Source: Candidatus Methylomirabilis limnetica
GTDB lineage: Bacteria; Methylomirabilota; Methylomirabilia; Methylomirabilales; Methylomirabilaceae
DNA length: 32,000 nt
Assembly (NCBI RefSeq): GCF_003044035.1
Contig: NZ_NVQC01000023.1
Location: forward strand, 60,001-92,000
Direction: 5' to 3'
Within the stretch, counting starts at the first letter, position 1. Each line of letters begins with the position of its first letter. Both the position numbers and the translations under genes were made by a program. The notes beneath the pieces were generated by a model, which saw nothing but the letters and a program-made list of their open reading frames with translations, was not told the origin of the DNA and searched no databases. Below, piece after piece: positions 5,533-32,000 of this stretch.

Positions 5533-5609
5533 GCGCCCGTAGCTCAGATGGATAGAGCAAGGGTTTCCTAAACCCTGTGTCGCAGGTTCAAATCCTGTCG
5601 GGCGCACCA
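5533..5609 (+). tRNA. tRNA-Arg (anticodon CCT), CCA encoded
   Basis: Hand-folded cloverleaf. Acceptor GCGCCCG/CGGGCGC; D arm GCTC-AGATGGATA-GAGC; anticodon arm AGGGT-TTCCTAA-ACCCT (U33, CCT, A37); variable loop GTGTC; T arm GCAGG-TTCAAAT-CCTGT; discriminator A; CCA. 77 nt in total. Confidence 0.95.
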
Positions 5610-23611: not shown

Positions 23612-24402
23612 CGCGCTTGTGCCTCCTTACTAAGGAAGGCCTGTCGAAAGGCCTCCAGGTCTGCGGGTTGGACCTCTGGCCACGTAGCCATCTGCCGGTA
23701 GAGCCCCTCGGGATCTGCGCGCACCTGGTCGAAGAGCTTGCTTGTCGCCTCAACTATTATGTTCACGCGCCTATCTATCAATGAGGTAATGAGCGGTGAC
23801 AGGAGCTTCGTCACGAAGTGGAAGAACGGATTATCGATCTGGAGGTAGAACTCCGGGTCGCTCTCCATCGAGGTCCGGCTCCCTTCCCGCACTTCACGAT
23901 ACTGCAGGATCAGGACCATCCGACTGGTAAAGCGGAGGAGGTTCGCAAGGGATCGAAACTCTCCCTGAAACCGATAGATGCGCTGATCGCCAGTCGCTGT
24001 GATCAACCTCGCTTCGCCTCTTAAGGCGCCACGGTCTTCGACCGTGTAGACGCCTTCCCCGACCTGAGTAACGGTGTACCGATCGAGGGGTGGGTGCAGG
24101 CGCCTGGCCAGTTGCGTCGCCAATGGCGGGTGACCCACCAGGAACTCGTAGGTTCGGCGATCTCCTGAAAACCGAATCCGCGGAATCTGCCGGCGCAGGG
24201 TCGGCTTCGCGATGATCTCAATCGTCTGAGGGTCCTCAATGGTCCGGCCGATGTCAACTGCGGCCTCCGCCTCGACCGGCCAGGCGAGGGCGGCAGACAG
24301 ATCAGTCAAGGGCAACGCGCGGAGTGCGGGGTACGGGGTGCGGGGCACTACAAGGAGACCAACGACCAAAATGAGGCCCAAACCAGGACTAGATGTCAGC
24401 AC
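23608..24402 (-). CDS. hypothetical membrane-anchored protein
   Basis: Track ORF 23608..24510 overlaps the methyltransferase by 115 nt. The in-frame GTG at 24402 (7-nt overlap with the upstream stop) gives VLTSSPGLGLILVVGLLVVPR... (an N-terminal TM helix). No family recognised. Confidence 0.55.
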   Translation of the reverse strand: MLTSSPGLGLILVVGLLVVPRTPYPALRALPLTDLSAALAWPVEAEAAVDIGRTIEDPQTIEIIAKPTLRRQIPRIRFSGDRRTYEFLVGHPPLATQLARRLHPPLDRYTVTQVGEGVYTVEDRGALRGEARLITATGDQRIYRFQGEFRSLANLLRFTSRMVLILQYREVREGSRTSMESDPEFYLQIDNPFFHFVTKLLSPLITSLIDRRVNIIVEATSKLFDQVRADPEGLYRQMATWPEVQPADLEAFRQAFLSKEAQAR

Positions 24403-25097
24403 GGACGACCCTGGTCGGCGCGCCGCACATAAGTTGGACGCTTCCGCATGAGGACGTGGAAGAAGCCGTTCAGTCCCTCGCGCTCCTCCTCGATCTCCAG
24501 GATCTCGCACCGGTCGCTGAAGATTTGGGCGAAGTCGCGCTTGACGAAGAAGTGGTCATAGTGGTTACGGTGGACCTGCCAGTTGCGTGTCCGCCGCTCT
24601 CCGGGATAGTGTTTGAACTTGGTGCTGAAGACCGTCAGGTGGAAGTACCCCCCTGGCTTCACAAGCCCCAGCACGCGGTCAAAATAGATCGGCCAGTCGG
24701 CCTTCTTGATGTGATGGAATACTCCGCTGTCCACGAGCGCATCAAAACTATCCGGCTTCAATGGCGGTGCAAGGGCATCTCCTAGCAGAAGCCTGATCCT
24801 TGGAGTGAGTCGCTTCTCACGTGCTCGCTGCGCAACTGTCCTCAGTGGTGCAGCCAGATAATCAAGGCCAACAGTAAAGAGTCCGGCCTTGGCGAAGAGG
24901 AGCACGTGCCGTCCCTCGCCACAACCCAGGTCGAGGACCCGACCACCCCCCTTACGCCGCTTCAGGAGATGCGACAAGCGGCTGACGGCCGGTGTCGGTT
25001 CAGTGGAAGGCCAGGGGGTCAGCCCGCCCGACTCGTAGACCTGCGCAAAGAAGTTCCGCTGCCGGGTGTATAACGCACTTTGCCACTCGGATCTCAT
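24396..25097 (-). CDS. class I SAM-dependent methyltransferase
   Basis: 233-aa ORF. Motif I RVLDLGCGEGRH, post-I FTVGLDY, motif II/III FDALVDSGVFHH ... LVKPGGYFHL. Confidence 0.85.
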   Translation of the reverse strand: MRSEWQSALYTRQRNFFAQVYESGGLTPWPSTEPTPAVSRLSHLLKRRKGGGRVLDLGCGEGRHVLLFAKAGLFTVGLDYLAAPLRTVAQRAREKRLTPRIRLLLGDALAPPLKPDSFDALVDSGVFHHIKKADWPIYFDRVLGLVKPGGYFHLTVFSTKFKHYPGERRTRNWQVHRNHYDHFFVKRDFAQIFSDRCEILEIEEEREGLNGFFHVLMRKRPTYVRRADQGRPC

Positions 25098-25118: not shown

Positions 25119-25169
25119 AAATTCCCCCGTACCCCCCTTTTACAAAGGGGGGGAACTGGGGGGATTTTT
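25119..25169 (+). repeat. REP-like element, extended palindromic version, abutting the cytochrome c stop codon
   Basis: AAATTCCCCCGTACCCCCCTTT-TAC-AAAGGGGGGGAACTGGGGGGATTTTT: an inner C6TTT/AAAG7 hairpin plus outer C5/G6 arms. It lies between the cytochrome c stop (25168-25170) and the methyltransferase start (25097), so it may act as a terminator or attenuator. Confidence 0.7.
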
Positions 25170-25779
25170 AATGGGCGTGCGCACCAGCGGTCAAACTCTT
25201 CATGTAGGCTACTACGTCGATGAGCTGCTGGATGGTCATCGAATCGTTGTAGCTGGGCATCTTTGATTTGCCATCAGGACCGAGATATCCTTTATTTTCA
25301 GACTTATGGTGATTGATTCGCCAGGCCACGGAGGCGTTCGGATCGATCATCACCTCGACAAAATACTCCGCCGTGTGCATTGCTCCCATCCCCGAGAGAA
25401 CAGACCCCACATCTCCTTGTTCAGCTTTGGGTGAGGGAAAGTCTTCGCCACGCACTTCATGGCACTTGAAGCATTCGAAGTCGATAAAGACCTGCCGCCC
25501 GGCGTGATGATTTCCGGCCGGCATGGCAAACTGCCACCCTTTTGGCATCGCGAGGCCAGACTGCTGCTTCACTGGACCGCCAGGTTGCACCATCGTCTTC
25601 TGTGGGGGTGTCACCGCCGGATGATGGTGATGTTCACTGCTCATCTGGGGCTCAGCGCTCCACCCGCTCACAACCCGGAATGCTAGAAGACCACACGTTA
25701 AAACAACTCCGCCTATTAACGCCGCGCTTTTGAGAACATGGCGACCTTCGCGTCTTGCCTCTCTCCTCATTACCCACAT
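25168..25779 (-). CDS. membrane-anchored monohaem c-type cytochrome
   Basis: Single CxxCH (CFKCH) with a distal KMPSY Met context and an N-terminal TM helix AALIGGVVLTCGLLAF. I prefer the ATG at 25779 (AAGGAG 7 nt upstream) over the track GTG at 25797. Confidence 0.8.
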   Translation of the reverse strand: MWVMRREARREGRHVLKSAALIGGVVLTCGLLAFRVVSGWSAEPQMSSEHHHHPAVTPPQKTMVQPGGPVKQQSGLAMPKGWQFAMPAGNHHAGRQVFIDFECFKCHEVRGEDFPSPKAEQGDVGSVLSGMGAMHTAEYFVEVMIDPNASVAWRINHHKSENKGYLGPDGKSKMPSYNDSMTIQQLIDVVAYMKSLTAGAHAH

Positions 25780-25830
25780 TGTCTCGCTCCTTCTCACTCT
25801 CGATGATATCTTCTTGTTGCGAGGATTACT

Positions 25831-26358
25831 TTACGAGACAAAGACCCACACCGTGCCCCTCCATCGCTCGATCGAGCGTTCAACTGTGAGCTTGAGCCCC
25901 ACCCGATAAGGCGCCTCGATCGACTTGCCTCCTGACGCCACTGGCTTGCCGTCTTTGGCGAGGGCGATGACCGTCACCCGGATCGTGCTATTGGGCTCAA
26001 TGGTGGTGGGCTCCGTTGACGACCCGTCCGGCCCAGCCTTCACCCCAATCGGGTACGACATACTGTCTGCCGTGATGAATATCCCCTCTGTCCAGACCAC
26101 CCGGATAGTAGAGGCGGTAGGATTTGAGAAAGTGAGACTCACCTCTGCTGATCCAGCATTCGCTTGATCAATCTTGAACGGCACAGGACCCATCCCCTGG
26201 GCAGACTGAACCGTCACCTCATGCTTGAGCGGAGACAGCCTGATCGGAGACTTTATCGACCTGAGCTCTGGCGGCAGGAACTGACACCCTGACAGCCACA
26301 ACAGGGCCACCAACCCTCCCATACCTGCGATCCTCGACAAAACCCTATCAGACAACAT
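25831..26358 (-). CDS. lipoprotein of unknown function
   Basis: 175-aa ORF with RBS GAGGAGGAGG before the ATG at 26358. Lipobox LLWLSGC, and the remainder is beta-rich. Confidence 0.7.
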   Translation of the reverse strand: MLSDRVLSRIAGMGGLVALLWLSGCQFLPPELRSIKSPIRLSPLKHEVTVQSAQGMGPVPFKIDQANAGSAEVSLTFSNPTASTIRVVWTEGIFITADSMSYPIGVKAGPDGSSTEPTTIEPNSTIRVTVIALAKDGKPVASGGKSIEAPYRVGLKLTVERSIERWRGTVWVFVS

Positions 26359-26445
26359 CCCTACCTCCTCCTCGGCTCTACCCCTTACCGTGTCCGGCGT
26401 TCGTCAAAGGCTGCTGCATATTGCTCGATCAGCCCTTCATCAGCA

Positions 26446-26487
26446 GTAACTACTCAGGTGTTTAGGCTGTAGGCTGAAGGCTGTTAG
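26446..26487 (+). repeat. 42-nt repeat GTAACTACTCAGGT-N4-(AGGCTGW)x3, copy downstream of the NRAMP-like gene
   Basis: GTAACTACTCAGGTGTTTAGGCTGTAGGCTGAAGGCTGTTAG. It matches 29926..29967 at 37/42 positions in the same orientation (hand alignment). Confidence 0.8.
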
Positions 26488-26702
26488 CCGCTGCGCATAG
26501 ACCGAATCAAGGCGCCCAGGACTTTCTTCTCCTCGGCCATCAGGCGGCGGACCAACTCCAAGGCCGCCTTGATCTGGGCGCTCCTCCACCGGCCACGCAT
26601 TGATCGCTGACGCATATCGCTGCTTTGGCCCCATGCCCGCCATCCGCCCTTTTTACCCTTGCAAGCAGAAATCTGTCACGCAAAAGCCCTCGGCCGGTCG
26701 CC

Positions 26703-27938
26703 CTAAAAAATTGAGGTCACCAGCAATAAGAGCGTGAGCACAACTATCACGAAGGCCGTTCCCCAGCCGATTAGGTTGGAGATCGGCGAGTTCACCTGCG
26801 CGCCCATGATCTTTCGGTCGTTGATCAGCAGGAGCATGAAGACCAGGACAGCCGGGAGCAGGATGCCGTTTAAGGTCTGGGAGAGATACATGATGGTGAT
26901 GAGCGGCGCCTTGGGCCAGAGGATCAGCAGCGCGCCGGCGCCCACCATGCTGAGGTAGATGCTGAAGAACCCGGGAGCCTCGCGAAAGGTCCGATTGATG
27001 CCCGTGTGCCAGCCAAGCCCCTCGCAGACCGCATAGGCGGTGGAGAGGGGCACGATGGCCGCGGAAAAGATGGAGGCGTTCAGCAGACCCACGGCAAAAA
27101 GGAGCGTGGCGTACTGGCCTGCGAACGGTTCGATCGCCATCGCAGCCTGTTCGGCCGTCTCGATCTGAATACCGTTCGCATTGAGGGTGGCACCGCACGC
27201 CACGATGATGAAGAACGCCACGGCTGACGCGACAATACTGCCTGTCCAAACATCGAACTTGACGTACCCATAGTCCTGGCGCCGAACTCCCTTATCGACG
27301 ATCGACGCCTGGATGTAGAACTGCATCCAGGGCGCAATGGTGGTTCCCACGAGGGTGATGAGCATAGTGAGATAGTCGCGCTCGATATGGAAGGTTGGCC
27401 TGGCAGTCTGCCGCAGGACGGTGGGCCAATTGGGGCTGGCCAGAAAGGCCGACACCAGATAGACGACATAGAAGAGGCTGGCGCCGAGGAAGATCCGTTC
27501 CACGAGGCGGTACGTCCCCTTGACGACCAACCAGCCCACCAGGAGCGCGGCCAGCGGCACCGTTGCGTATCGGCTCCACCCAAAGATCTCCATGCTCGCC
27601 GCCACGCCCGCGAATTCGGAAACGGTGTTGGCCAGGTTCGCCAGCACGAGAACCACCATCACGCCAACAGTGATCCGGACCCCAAACCGCTCGCGGATCA
27701 GCTCGGCCAACCCCTTGCCGGTCACGACCCCCATCCGCGAGCCCATCTCCTGGACGATGCCGAGGGCGATGGTGATGAACAACAGCGACCAGAGCAGACC
27801 ATAGCCGAACTGGGCGCCGGCAAGGGAATAGGTCGTGATCCCCCCCGCGTCCTGATCGACGCTGGCGGTAATGATCCCCGGGCCCATGATGGCGAGGAAA
27901 CGGAGGATCCGCCGCTTCTTGATCCGCGAAAGCCGCAT
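26703..27938 (-). CDS. NRAMP/SLC11-fold transporter with an NRMT-type (Mg2+-like) site rather than an MntH-type site
   Basis: 411-aa ORF with about 11 TM helices. TM1 reads GPGIITASVDQDAGG (D-A-G-G where NRAMPs have D-P-G-N). TM6 reads GTTIAPW (where NRAMPs have GA.VMPH). Otherwise it has typical Nramp blocks (LAGAQFGYGLLW, QEMGSRMGVVTGKGLAE). Confidence 0.85.
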   Translation of the reverse strand: MRLSRIKKRRILRFLAIMGPGIITASVDQDAGGITTYSLAGAQFGYGLLWSLLFITIALGIVQEMGSRMGVVTGKGLAELIRERFGVRITVGVMVVLVLANLANTVSEFAGVAASMEIFGWSRYATVPLAALLVGWLVVKGTYRLVERIFLGASLFYVVYLVSAFLASPNWPTVLRQTARPTFHIERDYLTMLITLVGTTIAPWMQFYIQASIVDKGVRRQDYGYVKFDVWTGSIVASAVAFFIIVACGATLNANGIQIETAEQAAMAIEPFAGQYATLLFAVGLLNASIFSAAIVPLSTAYAVCEGLGWHTGINRTFREAPGFFSIYLSMVGAGALLILWPKAPLITIMYLSQTLNGILLPAVLVFMLLLINDRKIMGAQVNSPISNLIGWGTAFVIVVLTLLLLVTSIF

Positions 27939-27962
27939 CGAGTGTCCTGGGTGGTGAAACGG

Positions 27963-29270
27963 TTAGATGTACTTTTTCGCTGCCCGTTGTTTCCATATCA
28001 TCGGGAGGAGTAGGTTCAGGACGTCATCGACAGTGACGATCCCTCTGAGCTCCCCCCCCTCATCCACCACCGGCACGGCCATTAGATTGTACCTGGTGAA
28101 GGTCTCGGTGACCTCGCGCAGGCCGGTCTCCGGCCGAACACTGATGGTTTGCCGCTCCATGATCTCATCAAGCCGCTGGCTCTGGTCGGCCAGGATCAGC
28201 TCCCGAAGGCTCAGTACCCCTACCAGCCGATCCAGGTCGTCGGTCACGTAGATGTAGTAGATAGTCTCGGCCTCGGCCCCCTCCACAGATCGGAGCCGAC
28301 CAATCACGTCGGCCACTAGGAAGTCTGGCCGCAGAGCAAACGCCTCTGTGGTCATGAGCCCACCGGCGGTATCTTCCTCGTGCGTGAGCAGCTCAACCAC
28401 ATCCTGGGCACCATCTTCCTCCATCGTATCGAGGAGCTCCTGCGCCTTCGCCTCCGGCAGGTCGCTCAAGATGTCGGCCGCCTCATCAGGCTCCATGCGC
28501 TCCAGGATATCGGCGGCCTGCTCACTCTCCATCATCTGGACCATCGAGGCTTGAACCTCCGGCTCCGTCTCGGTCAGCGTCTCGGCGGCGGTCTCTTCGT
28601 CTAAGGACTCCAACACCCCTGCTCGCTCGCTCGGACTGAGTTCCTCGATGATGTCGGCGATGTCAGCCGGATGCAGCTTCGCCAGTTTGGCATAGGTTGC
28701 GCGTCGCTTGGTCTTGGTCAGCTCAGTCTCTACCGGCTCGACAACATCCCAGGAGATCGTCTCACGTTCCAGGTGGGTCTTGAACAGGCTCGCGATCTGC
28801 TCAGCCATTGCCTCGGAGCCGAGATGCCTGAGTAGGCCACGCAGACCTGCCTCGACCGCCACAAGCTGCAGCCGCCCTTCTACCTCCTGGAATTCAAGAT
28901 CGTTGACCCGGATCACCTTGCAGCGCTTGGTATCCACCACCTTATGGTCCAGGAGGCTCTGCGCCAGCTCCATCTCCTCAGGCCGCAACGGAACAGGCTG
29001 AAGCGCCTTAGCCGCTTGAGACAGATGAATCGCCGCCGGCCCCCGCTCAATACGCGCCACAGCCTCCCACGGCAAAATCAGCTCTTCCTTCTCGGATGTC
29101 AGGATCGCGAGCTTGGTCACCGGGGGCAAGGCCCCCAACGGTAAGAGGATCAGGTCCTTAAGGTGACCCACAAGCTGCCCATCGGTATCGAGTACCGGAC
29201 AGCGACGCAACGCGGAGAAGAGGAGAGGCATACTCTCCGCCGGCATTTGACCCTCTACCTCCCCCTTCAT
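27963..29270 (-). CDS. cytosolic MgtE N-domain + CBS-pair protein with PRC-barrel-like N-terminus (no MgtE membrane domain)
   Basis: 435-aa ORF. N-terminal VLDTDGQLVGHLKDLIL (PRC-like). Acidic helical repeats HPADIADIIEELSPSERAGVLESLDEE...EQAADILERMEPDEAADILSDLPEAKAQELL (MgtE_N-like). Two CBS motifs (GGLMTTEAFALRPD...; IMERQTISVRPE...NLMAVPVVDEGGELRGIVTVDDVLN). It ends 12 residues later with no hydrophobic helices. Confidence 0.85.
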   Translation of the reverse strand: MKGEVEGQMPAESMPLLFSALRRCPVLDTDGQLVGHLKDLILLPLGALPPVTKLAILTSEKEELILPWEAVARIERGPAAIHLSQAAKALQPVPLRPEEMELAQSLLDHKVVDTKRCKVIRVNDLEFQEVEGRLQLVAVEAGLRGLLRHLGSEAMAEQIASLFKTHLERETISWDVVEPVETELTKTKRRATYAKLAKLHPADIADIIEELSPSERAGVLESLDEETAAETLTETEPEVQASMVQMMESEQAADILERMEPDEAADILSDLPEAKAQELLDTMEEDGAQDVVELLTHEEDTAGGLMTTEAFALRPDFLVADVIGRLRSVEGAEAETIYYIYVTDDLDRLVGVLSLRELILADQSQRLDEIMERQTISVRPETGLREVTETFTRYNLMAVPVVDEGGELRGIVTVDDVLNLLLPMIWKQRAAKKYI

Positions 29271-29890
29271 ATCTGACCGCTTCGCATGCCTCTGCGGACC
29301 AGCGCATTGAAGGTGGAGGAGTTGGCAATCTCCTTTTTGTAGATGAGCGGATCGTTCTGGAATCGTTTCTGGATGTAGCTGTCCACTCGATCCTTTAACT
29401 CGTATGGCAACGGTCTATCATCACCTGTAGTCTCAGACGTGTCAGCCGGATCGCCGTACATCGGGTGAAGCTTCCTTAGTGCTGCTGCCGCTTGCCCTGG
29501 TGTGTGACCCTCCCCTGACCCTTTTAGACAAATTGTATACCGCTGGAGCCCGTCAACCTTTTCGATGAGTACTCGCTCAATGGCAGGAAGATTCCACCAC
29601 CACCGTATATCTGCATCAGTCACACCTTCCTGTCTCTTCCTGGCAAGTTGTTCTTTAATGAGCGGATCTGTCGATTCTCGTTGAAGCAACTGATCTCCGG
29701 AATCTTGAGCCATGCCATCTGCCTTCGAGCGTTTCAACTCCTCTTTCGCGTCATGGATCATGTCTCTAGCGGTGCGTAGTGCCTCACTGGCCGGTATGCC
29801 CATCATCGACTCAAACATCCGAGCATGCGTTGCCTCAAGCTGCCGTTCGTAATCTGACTGCTTTAAAAACAGATCGGAAAGGAAGCCCAT
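29267..29890 (-). CDS. hypothetical protein (207 aa), first gene of the transporter operon
   Basis: ORF with a GGGAGGG RBS 7 nt before the ATG at 29890. Its stop overlaps the next ATG (ATGA). Hydrophilic and helical, with no family recognised. G+C is lower than its neighbours by eye. Confidence 0.65.
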   Translation of the reverse strand: MGFLSDLFLKQSDYERQLEATHARMFESMMGIPASEALRTARDMIHDAKEELKRSKADGMAQDSGDQLLQRESTDPLIKEQLARKRQEGVTDADIRWWWNLPAIERVLIEKVDGLQRYTICLKGSGEGHTPGQAAAALRKLHPMYGDPADTSETTGDDRPLPYELKDRVDSYIQKRFQNDPLIYKKEIANSSTFNALVRRGMRSGQI

Positions 29891-29925
29891 TGGTAACCCT
29901 CCCTACGATTTTTACAAACCACAAC

Positions 29926-29967
29926 GTAACTACTCAGGTAGATAGGCTGAAGGCTGAAGGCTTTTAG
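29926..29967 (+). repeat. 42-nt repeat GTAACTACTCAGGT-N4-(AGGCTGA)x2.5, copy upstream of the transporter operon
   Basis: GTAACTACTCAGGTAGATAGGCTGAAGGCTGAAGGCTTTTAG, starting 35 nt beyond the operon start codon. See 26446..26487. Confidence 0.8.
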
Positions 29968-30068
29968 GGGTGAGTAATGCGCGATCAAAGAAAACTCAGA
30001 AAAGGTCTTGAATGGCTCGATTCGTGCCTTGCGAGATAATTTATAACCTTCAGCTCAGTTACGGGTGG

Positions 30069-30180
30069 AAAAATCTCCCCCCGACTTAATACATGCCGGG
30101 GCAGGCTCTAGCCCCTCTTTTCCAAAGAGGGGGACTATCCGTTTCCCCCTTTGAAAAAGGGGGATTAAGGGGGATTTTAT
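30069..30180 (+). repeat. composite REP-like element (two C/G-run hairpins between AAAAATCTCCCCCC and GGGGGATTTTAT ends)
   Basis: AAAAATCTCCCCCC (30069-30082); CGGGGCAGGCT (30097-30107); hairpin CCCCTCTTT-TCC-AAAGAGGGG (30112-30132); hairpin CCCCCTTT-GAA-AAAGGGGG (30145-30163); then ATTAAGGGGGATTTTAT (to 30180). Confidence 0.75.
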
Positions 30181-30290
30181 AAAAACATACCACATTTTAT
30201 TTAATGATTTCCCGCCTATCACTGAATGGTTACTTCTTTACGTTCATTTTCGTTGAGGGTCGATACCCTGCGGCTTGCCGCGAGTTCGTC

Positions 30291-30374
30291 ATACCGGCGG
30301 AAGCCGGTATCCAACAGGGCCGACTGGATTCCCGCATATCCAGTACGGGGCAGGCTTGTCAAGCACGGAATGAC
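30291..30374 (+). repeat. intergenic repeat with two hairpins and a 30-nt block shared with 6486..6515
   Basis: ATACCGGC-GGAA-GCCGGTAT (30291-30310); CTGGAT-N8-ATCCAG (30324-30343); ACGGGGCAGGCTTGTCAAGCACGGAATGAC (30345-30374), which matches 6486..6515 at 28/30. The + strand track ORFs here merely translate this repeat. Confidence 0.7.
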
Positions 30375-30468
30375 AATCAAAAGAAAAGGACATCTGGCGC
30401 ACTATCCTCGTTTGTCCGTAGGCAGGAACGCAGCACACCTGCCGCATAGGAGGCGCAAGTTCTGTAGC

Positions 30469-32000
30469 CTAGTGGGCGCGGCTGACCTCAGCCTTGTCCG
30501 CTACGTCATCCTCCTTCACGATCGAGCCTCGCTTGCTGAAGAGCACCGACAGCCCCAGGACGGTCACGCAGGTCAAAACGATAATAGACCGAGTGCCAAA
30601 CCCAATTTCACGGATGGCCAAGGGTGCGATCAGGATCGCGACCAGGTTCATGACCTTGATCATCGGGTTGATGGCCGGCCCTGCGGTGTCCTTGAACGGA
30701 TCGCCGACCGTATCGCCGATGACCGCAGCCTTATGACAGTCAGTTCCTTTGCCGCCGAACAGCCCCTCCTCGATCTTCTTCTTGGCATTGTCCCATGCCC
30801 CGCCGGTATTCGCGAGGAACACCGCCATTAGCTGACCGGTGAGAATCGCTCCGGCAAGGAAGCCGCCAAGCGCAGGCGCGCCGAAGGCGAACGCGACCAG
30901 GATCGGGCTGACAATCGAGAGGACGCCCGGTCCCAGCAGTTCCTTCTGCGCCGCAGCCGTCACGATCTCCACGCACCGACCGTAGTCGGGCTTCTCCTTA
31001 AACTCCATGATCCCCGGCTTCTCCCGGAACTGCCGACGGACCTCTTCAACCAGAAGAAAGGCCGCCCGGCTCACCGCCTGGATCGCAAAGGAGCAGAAGA
31101 GGAACGGAACCGCCCCACCGATCAGGAACCCGATGAAGACCTCTGGCAGGTTTACCTGGATCCCCGTCTCTAAGAGGTGCGCCTCGTCGATAAAGGAGCG
31201 GAAGAGGGAGACGGCCGCGATGACCGCGGTGGCGATGGCCAGCCCTTTCGTCAGGGCCTTGGTCGTATTGCCGACCGCGTCGAGCTTGGCGACAATCCGA
31301 TGTGCCTCAATTCCAGAGGGCGTCCTGGGGGCGTTCTTCAGCGCGCCAGACATCTCGAAGATGCCGCTGGCGTTGTCGGAAATGGGGCCGAAGGTATCTT
31401 CGGCCAGCACGAAGCCGGTGGTCGCCAGCAGCCCCAGCCCGGCCAGGGCGATCCCATAGGCTGACAGCGAAACGCTCCCACCGAAGATGCTGTATGCGCC
31501 AAAGATAGTTGCGGCGATGGCCAGGATGGCCCACACGCTCGACTCGAGGCCTGCGGCAAACCCGGAGAGGATCAGCGTCGCCGGCCCTGTCCGGCTGGCA
31601 TAGGCAATCTCGGTCACAGGCTTCTTGTCGGTCGCGGTGAAATACTCCGTCAGCCACGAGATCACCAGCGCCAGGGCGATCCCCATCGTATTGGCCAGAA
31701 AGACGCGCCACCAGAGTGTGCCGTACTTCGGGCTCACGATGTCGCCAAGGTAAAAGTAGCTCACAATGAAAAAGCCGACAACCGAACTGAGCGCAGCTAC
31801 CCAGAAGCCGAAGTTGATCGGCTTCATCGGGTTCATGTCGGGATCATCCTTGCCCCGAACGCACCAGGTGCCGAGGATCGAGCCGAAGACACCCACGGCG
31901 CGGATCAAGAGGGGATAGATGATCAGGGCCAGGACGACCTTGGAGGCGCTGGCAGTACCGCCGAACGACTCGACAAAGTCCTTATCCAACATGGCCCCGG
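30469..32000 (-). CDS. hppA: membrane-bound proton-translocating pyrophosphatase, K+-independent type (C-terminal ~510 aa; gene continues past the right edge)
   Basis: The ORF is open to the window edge, so the M at 31992 is internal. Characteristic blocks are GGAWDNAKKKIE, DCHKAAVIGDTVGDPFKDTAGPAINPMIKVMN and AVGNTTKALTKG. The Lys in GNTTK (Ala in K+-dependent enzymes) marks the K+-independent class. Confidence 0.9.
   Translation of the reverse strand, partial: GAMLDKDFVESFGGTASASKVVLALIIYPLLIRAVGVFGSILGTWCVRGKDDPDMNPMKPINFGFWVAALSSVVGFFIVSYFYLGDIVSPKYGTLWWRVFLANTMGIALALVISWLTEYFTATDKKPVTEIAYASRTGPATLILSGFAAGLESSVWAILAIAATIFGAYSIFGGSVSLSAYGIALAGLGLLATTGFVLAEDTFGPISDNASGIFEMSGALKNAPRTPSGIEAHRIVAKLDAVGNTTKALTKGLAIATAVIAAVSLFRSFIDEAHLLETGIQVNLPEVFIGFLIGGAVPFLFCSFAIQAVSRAAFLLVEEVRRQFREKPGIMEFKEKPDYGRCVEIVTAAAQKELLGPGVLSIVSPILVAFAFGAPALGGFLAGAILTGQLMAVFLANTGGAWDNAKKKIEEGLFGGKGTDCHKAAVIGDTVGDPFKDTAGPAINPMIKVMNLVAILIAPLAIREIGFGTRSIIVLTCVTVLGLSVLFSKRGSIVKEDDVADKAEVSRAH

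Follow-up and report, generated by a model that had tools for sequence, protein, structure and literature searches.

What does a Mg2+ sensor of the MgtE type do when it has no pore of its own and is encoded next to a transporter of an unrelated fold? The question is raised by a 32,000-nucleotide (nt) stretch of the Candidatus Methylomirabilis limnetica genome (contig NZ_NVQC01000023.1, positions 60,001 to 92,000; hereafter the window), in which a 207-amino-acid (aa) orphan gene, a gene for a soluble MgtE-like protein (hereafter the sensor) and a gene for an Nramp-fold transporter follow one another closely on the minus strand (Table 1). We find that the NRMT-type transporter and the pore-less MgtE sensor are a conserved gene pair, and that the locus is a further case of an operon type described in 2014, so that the pairing itself is not new. 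The interpretation that we favour, with moderate confidence, is that this is an operon of the known MgtE-fragment and NrmT type for the uptake of Mg2+ or Mn2+, in which the sensor would act as a Mg2+-responsive brake and to which the 207-aa gene is unrelated.

The transporter matches the Pfam Nramp profile over nearly its whole length (PF01566, E = 9e-93, profile positions 1-356 of 357). When it was compared with all PDB sequences by phmmer, the best match was the Eggerthella lenta NRMT (EleNRMT; 7QIA, E = 2.9e-111, 375.6 bits), to which it aligns without gaps over 403 residues at 46% identity. The next-best chain, an MntH-type protein with DPGN and MPH motifs, scored 96.1 bits (E = 2e-26), DraNramp 78.6 bits and NRAT 46.9 bits, and the NCBIfam MntH model gave 144 bits against a cut-off of 430. 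In the alignment with EleNRMT the ion-site residues D55, G58, T224, A227, W229 and Q379 are matched by D30, G33, T199, A202, W204 and Q354, all six identical; Q354 is the Gln of α10, and the motifs that hold the other five, DAGG in transmembrane segment 1 (TM1; D30, G33) and GTTIAPW in TM6 (T199, A202, W204), are likewise identical in EleNRMT. An earlier note on this DNA had quoted the peptides GPGIITASVDQDAGGITT and LVGTTIAPWMQFY, both of which occur in the translation of the 411-aa open reading frame (ORF), and had mapped onto them the replacements Asn to Gly, Ala to Thr, Met to Ala and His to Trp. Because the alignment sets the six residues on the site residues of EleNRMT, this mapping is right, and the 7QIA match and the site residues bear out the view that the protein is an NRMT-like Nramp with a Mg2+-type site. 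As judged from its sequence, the transporter belongs to the NRMTs, the Met-less and Asn-less branch of the Nramp family.

The same site recurs throughout the NRMTs of the census described below: D30, G33 and T199 are present in 81 of 81, Q354 in 78 of 81, and all site residues in 72-81 of the 81. The figure for D30 and G33 is partly circular, as the DAGG motif was a search pattern; T199 lay outside the pattern. EleNRMT (PDB entries 7QIA, 7QIC, 7QJI and 7QJJ) is a uniporter that works independently of H+ and accepts Mg2+ and Mn2+ but not Ca2+, and its T224A mutant loses Mg2+ transport while Mn2+ transport is spared (Ramanadane et al. 2022, PMC8806188). Mg2+, rather than Mn2+, is the putative physiological substrate of the transporter.

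The earlier note had described the partner of the transporter as a membrane-less MgtE_N/CBS protein with a PRC-like N terminus, and Pfam, the comparison with a known MgtE structure, an AlphaFold2 (AF2) model and a Foldseek search with that model agree with this description. The profile searches that the note had proposed gave matches to PF01566, PF03448, PF00571 and PF05239, and the MgtE membrane domain PF01769 was absent, as the note expected. Specifically, Pfam detects no PF01769 in the sensor, which ends 14 residues past its second CBS domain (CBS2), and the match to TIGR00400 reaches 181.8 bits (cut-off 232.75) over model positions 11-251 of 450 only. Because PF01769 is absent and the TIGR00400 match stays below its cut-off and spans only the cytoplasmic half, the sensor is not an MgtE channel. 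Its sole hydrophobic stretch, residues 40-58, takes the form of β-strands in the model, within the first PRC-like domain. Overall, the AF2 model (predicted local distance difference test score, pLDDT, 78) contains two β-rich domains, nine MgtE_N helices and a CBS pair, the strands of the first domain lying in residues 25-83 (pLDDT 79-93). The best Foldseek matches in the PDB are MgtE cytoplasmic domains (E ~1e-18), and residues 184-421 match the Thermus thermophilus MgtE cytosolic domain 2YVY with E = 8e-39.

The PRC assignment of the N-terminal region draws largely on relatives of the sensor. In the sensor itself the PF05239 match scores 22.0-24.2 bits against a gathering cut-off of 21.2 and covers residues 19-42 only. 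The match is stronger in the homologues, where it reaches 7e-07 to 5.8e-14 (up to 52 bits) and covers two stretches, as in a homologue from Coriobacteriia (L084) that has two PRC stretches; the assignment of the second β domain as PRC-like rests on these homologues only. The top 50 Foldseek matches of the whole sensor were to MgtE and CBS proteins only and gave the PRC fold no independent confirmation.

The pairing of the two genes was assessed in a census, for which each GTDB species was represented by one genome and scanned with an NRMT alignment. An NRMT relative with the NRMT motifs occurs in at least 596 of these species representatives, from Archaea and Bacteria. Pairing was counted in the best 80 loci of these 596 or more (51-66% identity), which span Methanocellaceae, Methanobacteriaceae and over 15 phyla of Bacteria and of which 76 left room to judge; hidden Markov models (HMMs) were built for the N region of the sensor (sensN), the C region of the sensor, the orphan and NRMT. 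A sensor gene without transmembrane segments adjoins the NRMT gene in 70 of the 76 informative loci (92%), a frequency that upholds the expectation of the earlier note that the pair would be conserved. The sensor gene lies immediately upstream on the same strand in 65 of the 76, downstream in 1 and adjacent on the other strand in 4, and the intergenic gaps are mostly -22 to +100 nt. The PRC-like N region was found in all 64 complete sensors (64/64), and with one exception the census sensors end 0-27 residues past CBS2.

Some of the census loci show further features. In three of them (L020:1-1281, L045:2240-3814 and L050:2-1537) a much more distant second Nramp paralogue, which the NRMT HMM matches with E = 3e-40, 2e-77 and 3e-37, respectively, lies a few kilobases (kb) from the NRMT and sensor pair. 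In a metagenome-assembled genome (MAG) of Spirochaetota (L042:3213-4974), the sensor gene upstream of NRMT is split over three overlapping frames and is either a pseudogene or the product of an assembly frameshift. Of 26 sampled loci, 3 have an M-box, each of them from Firmicutes or Coriobacteriia; Shin et al. 2014 (PMC4072509) took this riboswitch as a marker of the high-affinity Mg2+ subset, but the NRMT family does not require it. One of the three M-boxes, in Peptococcaceae bacterium CEB3 (L054:4554-4720, 137 bits), lies directly 5′ of an NRMT gene that lacks any MgtE-like gene within 5 kb, an arrangement which suggests that RNA-level control can replace the protein partner.

Where the sensor comes from is indicated by its longer relatives. 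An exhaustive search with the sensor N region matched 941 representative proteins (E ≤ 0.001); in the best 150 of these, the full-length proteins are mostly of ~410-436 aa and about 16 are of 593-656 aa, the remainder being shorter or fragments. Two groups of long proteins can be told apart. Proteins such as P0395 (605 aa) and P0377 (656 aa) are bona fide PRC-MgtE_N-CBS-MgtE channels, with PF01769 at 100 bits in P0395, and in the neighbourhoods examined no NRMT stands beside channels of this type. The second group is encoded directly upstream of NRMT. It includes L084:3145-4983 (613 aa; MAG of Coriobacteriia, DASXUP010000019.1) and L091:792-2657 (621 aa), in which two PRC domains, MgtE_N and two CBS domains are followed by a hydrophobic C terminus of ~200 residues that falls below the PF01769 cut-off or does not match this profile. 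That of L084, whose gene is preceded by an M-box, scores 24.5 bits against PF01769 (cut-off 27.6), and P0424, which also lies directly upstream of NRMT, has no match. Proteins of the L084 and L091 type may represent a step from PRC-MgtE channels towards the soluble sensor. Taken together, the two groups suggest that the soluble sensor arose when a PRC-type MgtE lost its pore and that its PRC region was inherited, not invented for docking to NRMT; the anchored variants beside NRMTs further suggest that the sensor works at the membrane.

In terms of architecture, the sensor is a PRC-MgtE_N-CBS-MgtE protein minus the pore: it shares the tandem PRC-like N region, the MgtE_N domain and the CBS pair with these channels, which keep PF01769 and have no adjacent NRMT. 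The idea that the PRC domains are an NRMT-specific docking adaptation is weakened, because full-length MgtE channels without an adjacent NRMT have the same N region. The cytoplasmic region of T. thermophilus MgtE (2YVY, 2YVX, 2ZY9 and 5X9G), like the sensor, consists of an N domain and a CBS pair, at ~41% identity. The sensor differs from T. thermophilus MgtE in having no plug helix or pore, in changes at the Mg5 ligands, the E216 position and the ATP-stacking Phe, in ~180 PRC-like residues added at its N terminus and in a short basic tail at its end.

Which parts of the MgtE sensing apparatus the sensor keeps was judged from the Mg2+ sites defined for MgtE, namely Mg4 (D91/D247), Mg5 (D226/D250), Mg6 (D95) and Mg7 (E59) (Maruyama et al. 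2018, PMC5882242). The numbering offset was checked on all six reference residues, and conservation was counted over 66 sensors from many phyla. The sensor keeps Mg4 as D262/D416, Mg6 as D266 and Mg7 as E230. Across the 66 sensors, Asp occupies the D91 position in 56, the D95 position in 65 and the D247 position in 55, and Asp or Glu occupies the E59 position in 48; at the D226 position of Mg5, Asp is found in only 7. The Mg2+ ligands of MgtE that bridge the N domain and the CBS pair correspond to the best-conserved residues of the sensor.

For the ATP site of MgtE, residues were taken from Tomita et al. 2017 (PMC5529423); at their positions the sensor has Y339, R356, E357, E372 and L396. Y170 and R187 of MgtE are retained (as Y339 and R356), the adenine-stacking F227 is replaced by Leu in the sensor and in 44 of the 66 sensors, and the N203 position is not conserved. 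These last two changes make nucleotide sensing by the sensor doubtful, and ATP sensing of the MgtE kind is only partly supported, its key Phe being replaced by Leu. The tail of the sensor sits where MgtE runs on into the plug helix and the pore. Among 65 sensors the tails have a median length of 11 aa and a median net charge of +4; at least three Lys or Arg residues are present in 38, and a Pro occurs within the first four residues in 45. With a Pro and then basic residues at its end, a sensor would be suited to associate with the membrane or the transporter.

The earlier note had taken the hybrid module to be new and uncharacterised, a claim that does not hold in the light of Shin et al. 2014 (PMC4072509). 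These authors reported that most NrmT genes adjoin a gene for a homologue of MgtE's N-terminal cytoplasmic domain ('mgtE-nramp operons', their Fig. S5), speculated that the MgtE fragment provides cytoplasmic feedback regulation or metal chaperone activity, and tested one pair. The Clostridium acetobutylicum (Ca_c0685) and Acidobacterium capsulatum operons have the same gene order as the window, with a stand-alone gene for the MgtE cytoplasmic domain immediately upstream, and their transporters, like that of the window, are Nramp-related and lack the DPGN/Met site (PMC4072509). Unlike the window locus, the C. acetobutylicum operon is controlled by an M-box and has its MgtE fragment split over two genes (PMC4072509), and the host phylum of the window (NC10/Methylomirabilota) is different from those of both organisms. 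Shin et al. call the partner a 'small' MgtE N-terminal homologue, and the term CBS does not appear in the text of their paper, whereas the census partners have ~420 aa and a tandem PRC-like region. Transport and H+-uncoupling are properties measured for EleNRMT. The EleNRMT study deals with the transporter alone: the terms CBS and operon are absent from it, and MgtE enters only as a comparison (PMC8806188). In the literature that we searched, including reviews of 2023 and 2026, Cellier 2022 and PMC8806188, there is no later work on the accessory protein.

How might such a sensor act on NRMT? CorA and MgtE channels are both closed at millimolar Mg2+ by cytoplasmic Mg2+ sensors of their own (introduction of PMC4072509; PMC5882242). 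An uncoupled uniporter working under an inside-negative membrane potential would need a brake, and because NRMT has no cytoplasmic domain of its own, a separate sensor could supply it. When cytoplasmic Mg2+ is high, the Mg4- and Mg6-type carboxylates D262, D266 and D416 would let the acidic N domain close on the CBS pair, and the closed sensor, held at the membrane by its Pro and polybasic tail, would inhibit NRMT; at low Mg2+, the sensor would open and release NRMT. We infer from this that the sensor gates NRMT in trans. A more specific version may be correct, but we advance it more tentatively: the sensor would be a gating subunit that has become detachable, derived from a PRC-type MgtE that lost its pore, with membrane-anchored intermediates still extant, and would close an H+-uncoupled LeuT-fold uniporter in trans in response to cytoplasmic Mg2+. 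There is a parallel in K+ uptake by KtrAB and TrkAH, in which the membrane subunit is gated in trans by a separate RCK subunit, a soluble, ligand-sensing regulator whose own gene adjoins that of the transporter. The parallel is one of concept; folds, ligands and stoichiometry are unrelated.

Several observations weigh against a Mg2+-responsive brake. Both Mg5 aspartates are Asn in the sensor (N395 and N419), and the residue at the position of MgtE E216, which we take to be a Mg2+ ligand facing the plug and transmembrane region, is Arg; the MgtE sensing apparatus thus appears to be retained only in part. The arrangement of the domains relative to one another in the AF2 model is uncertain (predicted template modelling score, pTM, 0.39). 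No sensor lies near NRMT in 6 of the 76 informative loci, so NRMT can work without one, and neither the searched literature nor the present analysis holds direct evidence of an interaction between sensor and NRMT. Like the A. capsulatum operon, the window locus has no M-box. In A. capsulatum, moreover, co-expression of Acp2976 and Acp2977 in a Bacillus subtilis Mg2+-transport mutant did not improve rescue, and NrmT rescued a Mn2+-uptake mutant fully and the Mg2+ mutant partly, which makes it mainly a Mn2+ importer (PMC4072509). The unimproved rescue does not bear on inhibition in trans, since with Mg2+ limiting an inhibitor is not expected to make rescue any better.

The preference of the A. 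capsulatum transporter for Mn2+ instead speaks for a different account, in which the pair chiefly imports Mn2+ (or divalent metals generally) and the ligand of the MgtE-like protein is Mn2+ or some other cation, not Mg2+. The A. capsulatum operon resembles the window locus in combining an MgtE fragment with the absence of an M-box, Shin et al. suggest that the fragment may respond to Mn2+ (PMC4072509), and EleNRMT carries Mn2+ besides Mg2+ (PMC8806188). The absence of an M-box from the window locus, and its presence in only 3 of 26 sampled loci, point the same way. M-box riboswitches are, however, mostly a feature of Firmicutes, so that their absence in NC10 says little. We consider this account unlikely on two grounds: T199 is invariant (81/81), and loss of the corresponding Thr in EleNRMT abolishes transport of Mg2+, not of Mn2+; and the residues best conserved in the sensor are the Mg2+-bridging carboxylates of MgtE. 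A role other than gating, in which the MgtE-like protein is a buffer or chaperone for the imported ion, or a sensor of nucleotides (energy status) through its CBS domains, possibly with another target, seems to us less probable still. Metal chaperone activity is the alternative that Shin et al. list (PMC4072509), and the 33 Asp or Glu residues among the 102 of the MgtE_N region would fit it; CBS pairs commonly bind adenine nucleotides, MgtE gating needs ATP (PMC5529423), and Y339 and R356 of the ATP site are retained. Yet the Phe whose mutation in MgtE (F227A) abolishes ATP binding is the one replaced by Leu, here and in most other sensors, and N203 is not conserved either. The tight, same-strand and near-universal adjacency to one transporter family, and the membrane-anchored variants beside NRMTs, speak more for a direct partner than for a general buffer.

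The remaining alternative concerns the orphan, which the earlier note had counted as part of the module and which could, on that view, act as a third subunit or a regulator, with its translation coupled to that of the sensor. The three genes share a strand and are closely spaced, and the trio is kept in Ca. M. oxyfera and other NC10 contigs, although it was found only in such Methylomirabilis relatives. The note had also pointed to an overlap between the start codon of the sensor and the stop codon of the orphan. In the 435-aa reading this ATGA is literally present; the start that it implies, and with it the translational coupling, is probably miscalled. A strong Shine-Dalgarno sequence, GGGGGAGG, lies within 'codons 2-5' of the 435-aa reading, ahead of an ATG at 29246 (427 aa) that is followed by another at 29231 (422 aa), the homologues of the sensor have 422-425 aa and cover 97% of the query, and in Ca. 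M. oxyfera at least about 100 nt separate the orphan stop from the earliest possible sensor start. The true sensor therefore probably has 422-427 aa and starts 21-36 nt past the orphan stop. Beyond the start codon, the orphan HMM found nothing in the 80 census NRMT loci (0/80), and in four other lineages the homologues with 40-50% identity on long contigs lie among unrelated genes, with MgtE_N, CBS and Nramp genes all absent nearby and no conserved neighbour in common. On these counts the claim that the orphan belongs to the module fails, and a three-gene module is very improbable.

The orphan is nevertheless a real, conserved family; it is a lineage-specific neighbour in Methylomirabilis and lies outside the module. 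It has no match in Pfam, NCBIfam, PHROGs or PADLOC, and none of its ~198 homologues is annotated. Near-invariant motifs are EGVxDxDIRWWWN, GDDRPLPYELKDR and SSTFNALxR. The AF2 model is all-α (pLDDT 88, pTM 0.81) and has no structural neighbour in the PDB or BFVD (best E > 1). The homologues occur in varied contexts in MAGs labelled NC10, Kiritimatiellae and Verrucomicrobiae and in others, some of them near integrase, helix-turn-helix or DruA genes (L004 and L005), and in the complete M. oxyfera genome the orphan gene borders a stretch rich in toxin-antitoxin genes.

NRMTs form a fourth class of Mg2+ importers in prokaryotes, and a widespread one; their soluble MgtE-like companion, noticed in 2014, has had no demonstrated function since. 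To this the census contributes the 92% association figure, the constant tandem PRC-like region, the conserved ligands bridging the N domain and the CBS pair, and the membrane-anchored variants, which together make the hypothesis of gating in trans concrete and testable; the present analysis also takes the 207-aa gene out of the model of the module. Should the hypothesis be true, it would provide the first example of an MgtE sensor taken over for the control of a transporter with a different, unrelated fold, and it would explain how a family present in at least 596 species representatives of Archaea and Bacteria avoids Mg2+ overload.

The layout of the locus and its neighbours is given in Table 1. 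An ORF check confirmed the three frames of 411, 435 and 207 aa with the coordinates and strand that the earlier note had given, and reading the sequence confirmed both the 24 nt between the sensor stop and the transporter ATG and the good ribosome-binding site of the orphan, GGGAGGG, 7 nt ahead of its ATG. The gap between sensor and transporter is also 24 nt in Ca. M. oxyfera. The names carried by the nearest homologues likewise point to a Methylomirabilis (NC10) relative as the source of the window. Promoter and terminator scans of the locus gave matches no more often than in shuffled sequence, and neither an M-box (RF00380) nor any other Rfam family was found in positions 26300-30500 at the gathering threshold or at E ≤ 1.

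Table 1. Features of the transporter and sensor locus and of its surroundings (positions in the window; aa, amino acids)
Feature	Position	Strand	Remarks
NRMT-type Nramp/SLC11 transporter gene	26703..27938	-	411 aa
Intergenic spacer, 24 nt	27939..27962	-	AGGA ribosome-binding site 6 nt 5′ of the transporter ATG
Soluble MgtE-like sensor gene	27963..29270	-	435 aa as longest ORF
C-terminal tail of sensor, LLPMIWKQRAAKKYI	27966..28007	-	Pro, then basic stretch
CBS pair of sensor	28008..28358	-	Residues 305-421; Pfam CBS x2, 3e-20
MgtE_N helical domain of sensor	28371..28676	-	Residues 199-300; Pfam 1.7e-27
Second β-rich, PRC-like domain of sensor, then two short helices	28752..28967	-	Residues 102-173; AF2
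PRC-barrel-like β domain 1 of sensor	29022..29225	-	Residues 16-83; Pfam PRC, AF2
207-aa orphan gene	29267..29890	-	GGGAGGG Shine-Dalgarno sequence 7 nt 5′ of ATG
Promoter-like site	30194..30222	-	Weak; 9/12 consensus matches, within the 578 nt upstream of the 207-aa gene
Membrane H+-pyrophosphatase gene	30469-31992	-	Truncated at window end
175-aa protein	25831-26358	-	No Pfam matches; syntenic with M. oxyfera
c-type cytochrome	25168-25797	-	209 aa; syntenic with M. oxyfera
S-adenosylmethionine-dependent methyltransferase	24396-25097	-	Syntenic with M. oxyfera
tRNA gene	5533-5606	+	Rfam 66.7 bits; unrelated to the transporter and sensor locus

On the downstream side, a 245-aa RadC-family gene separates NRMT from the next conserved gene in Ca. 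M. oxyfera (L009:8566-9303). In the window, similarity to RadC is confined to 23 residues at positions 26443-26652 (78% identity), a trace that reflects either a deletion that left a remnant in the window or an insertion in M. oxyfera. On the upstream side, the 578 nt that separate the H+-pyrophosphatase gene from the 207-aa gene (window positions 29891-30468) contain several short G/C-rich inverted repeats, such as ccccc-tttttcaaa-ggggg and tccccctctttggaaaagagggg (~30110-30170), beside an AT-rich stretch; these repeats may represent the hppA terminator together with a promoter.

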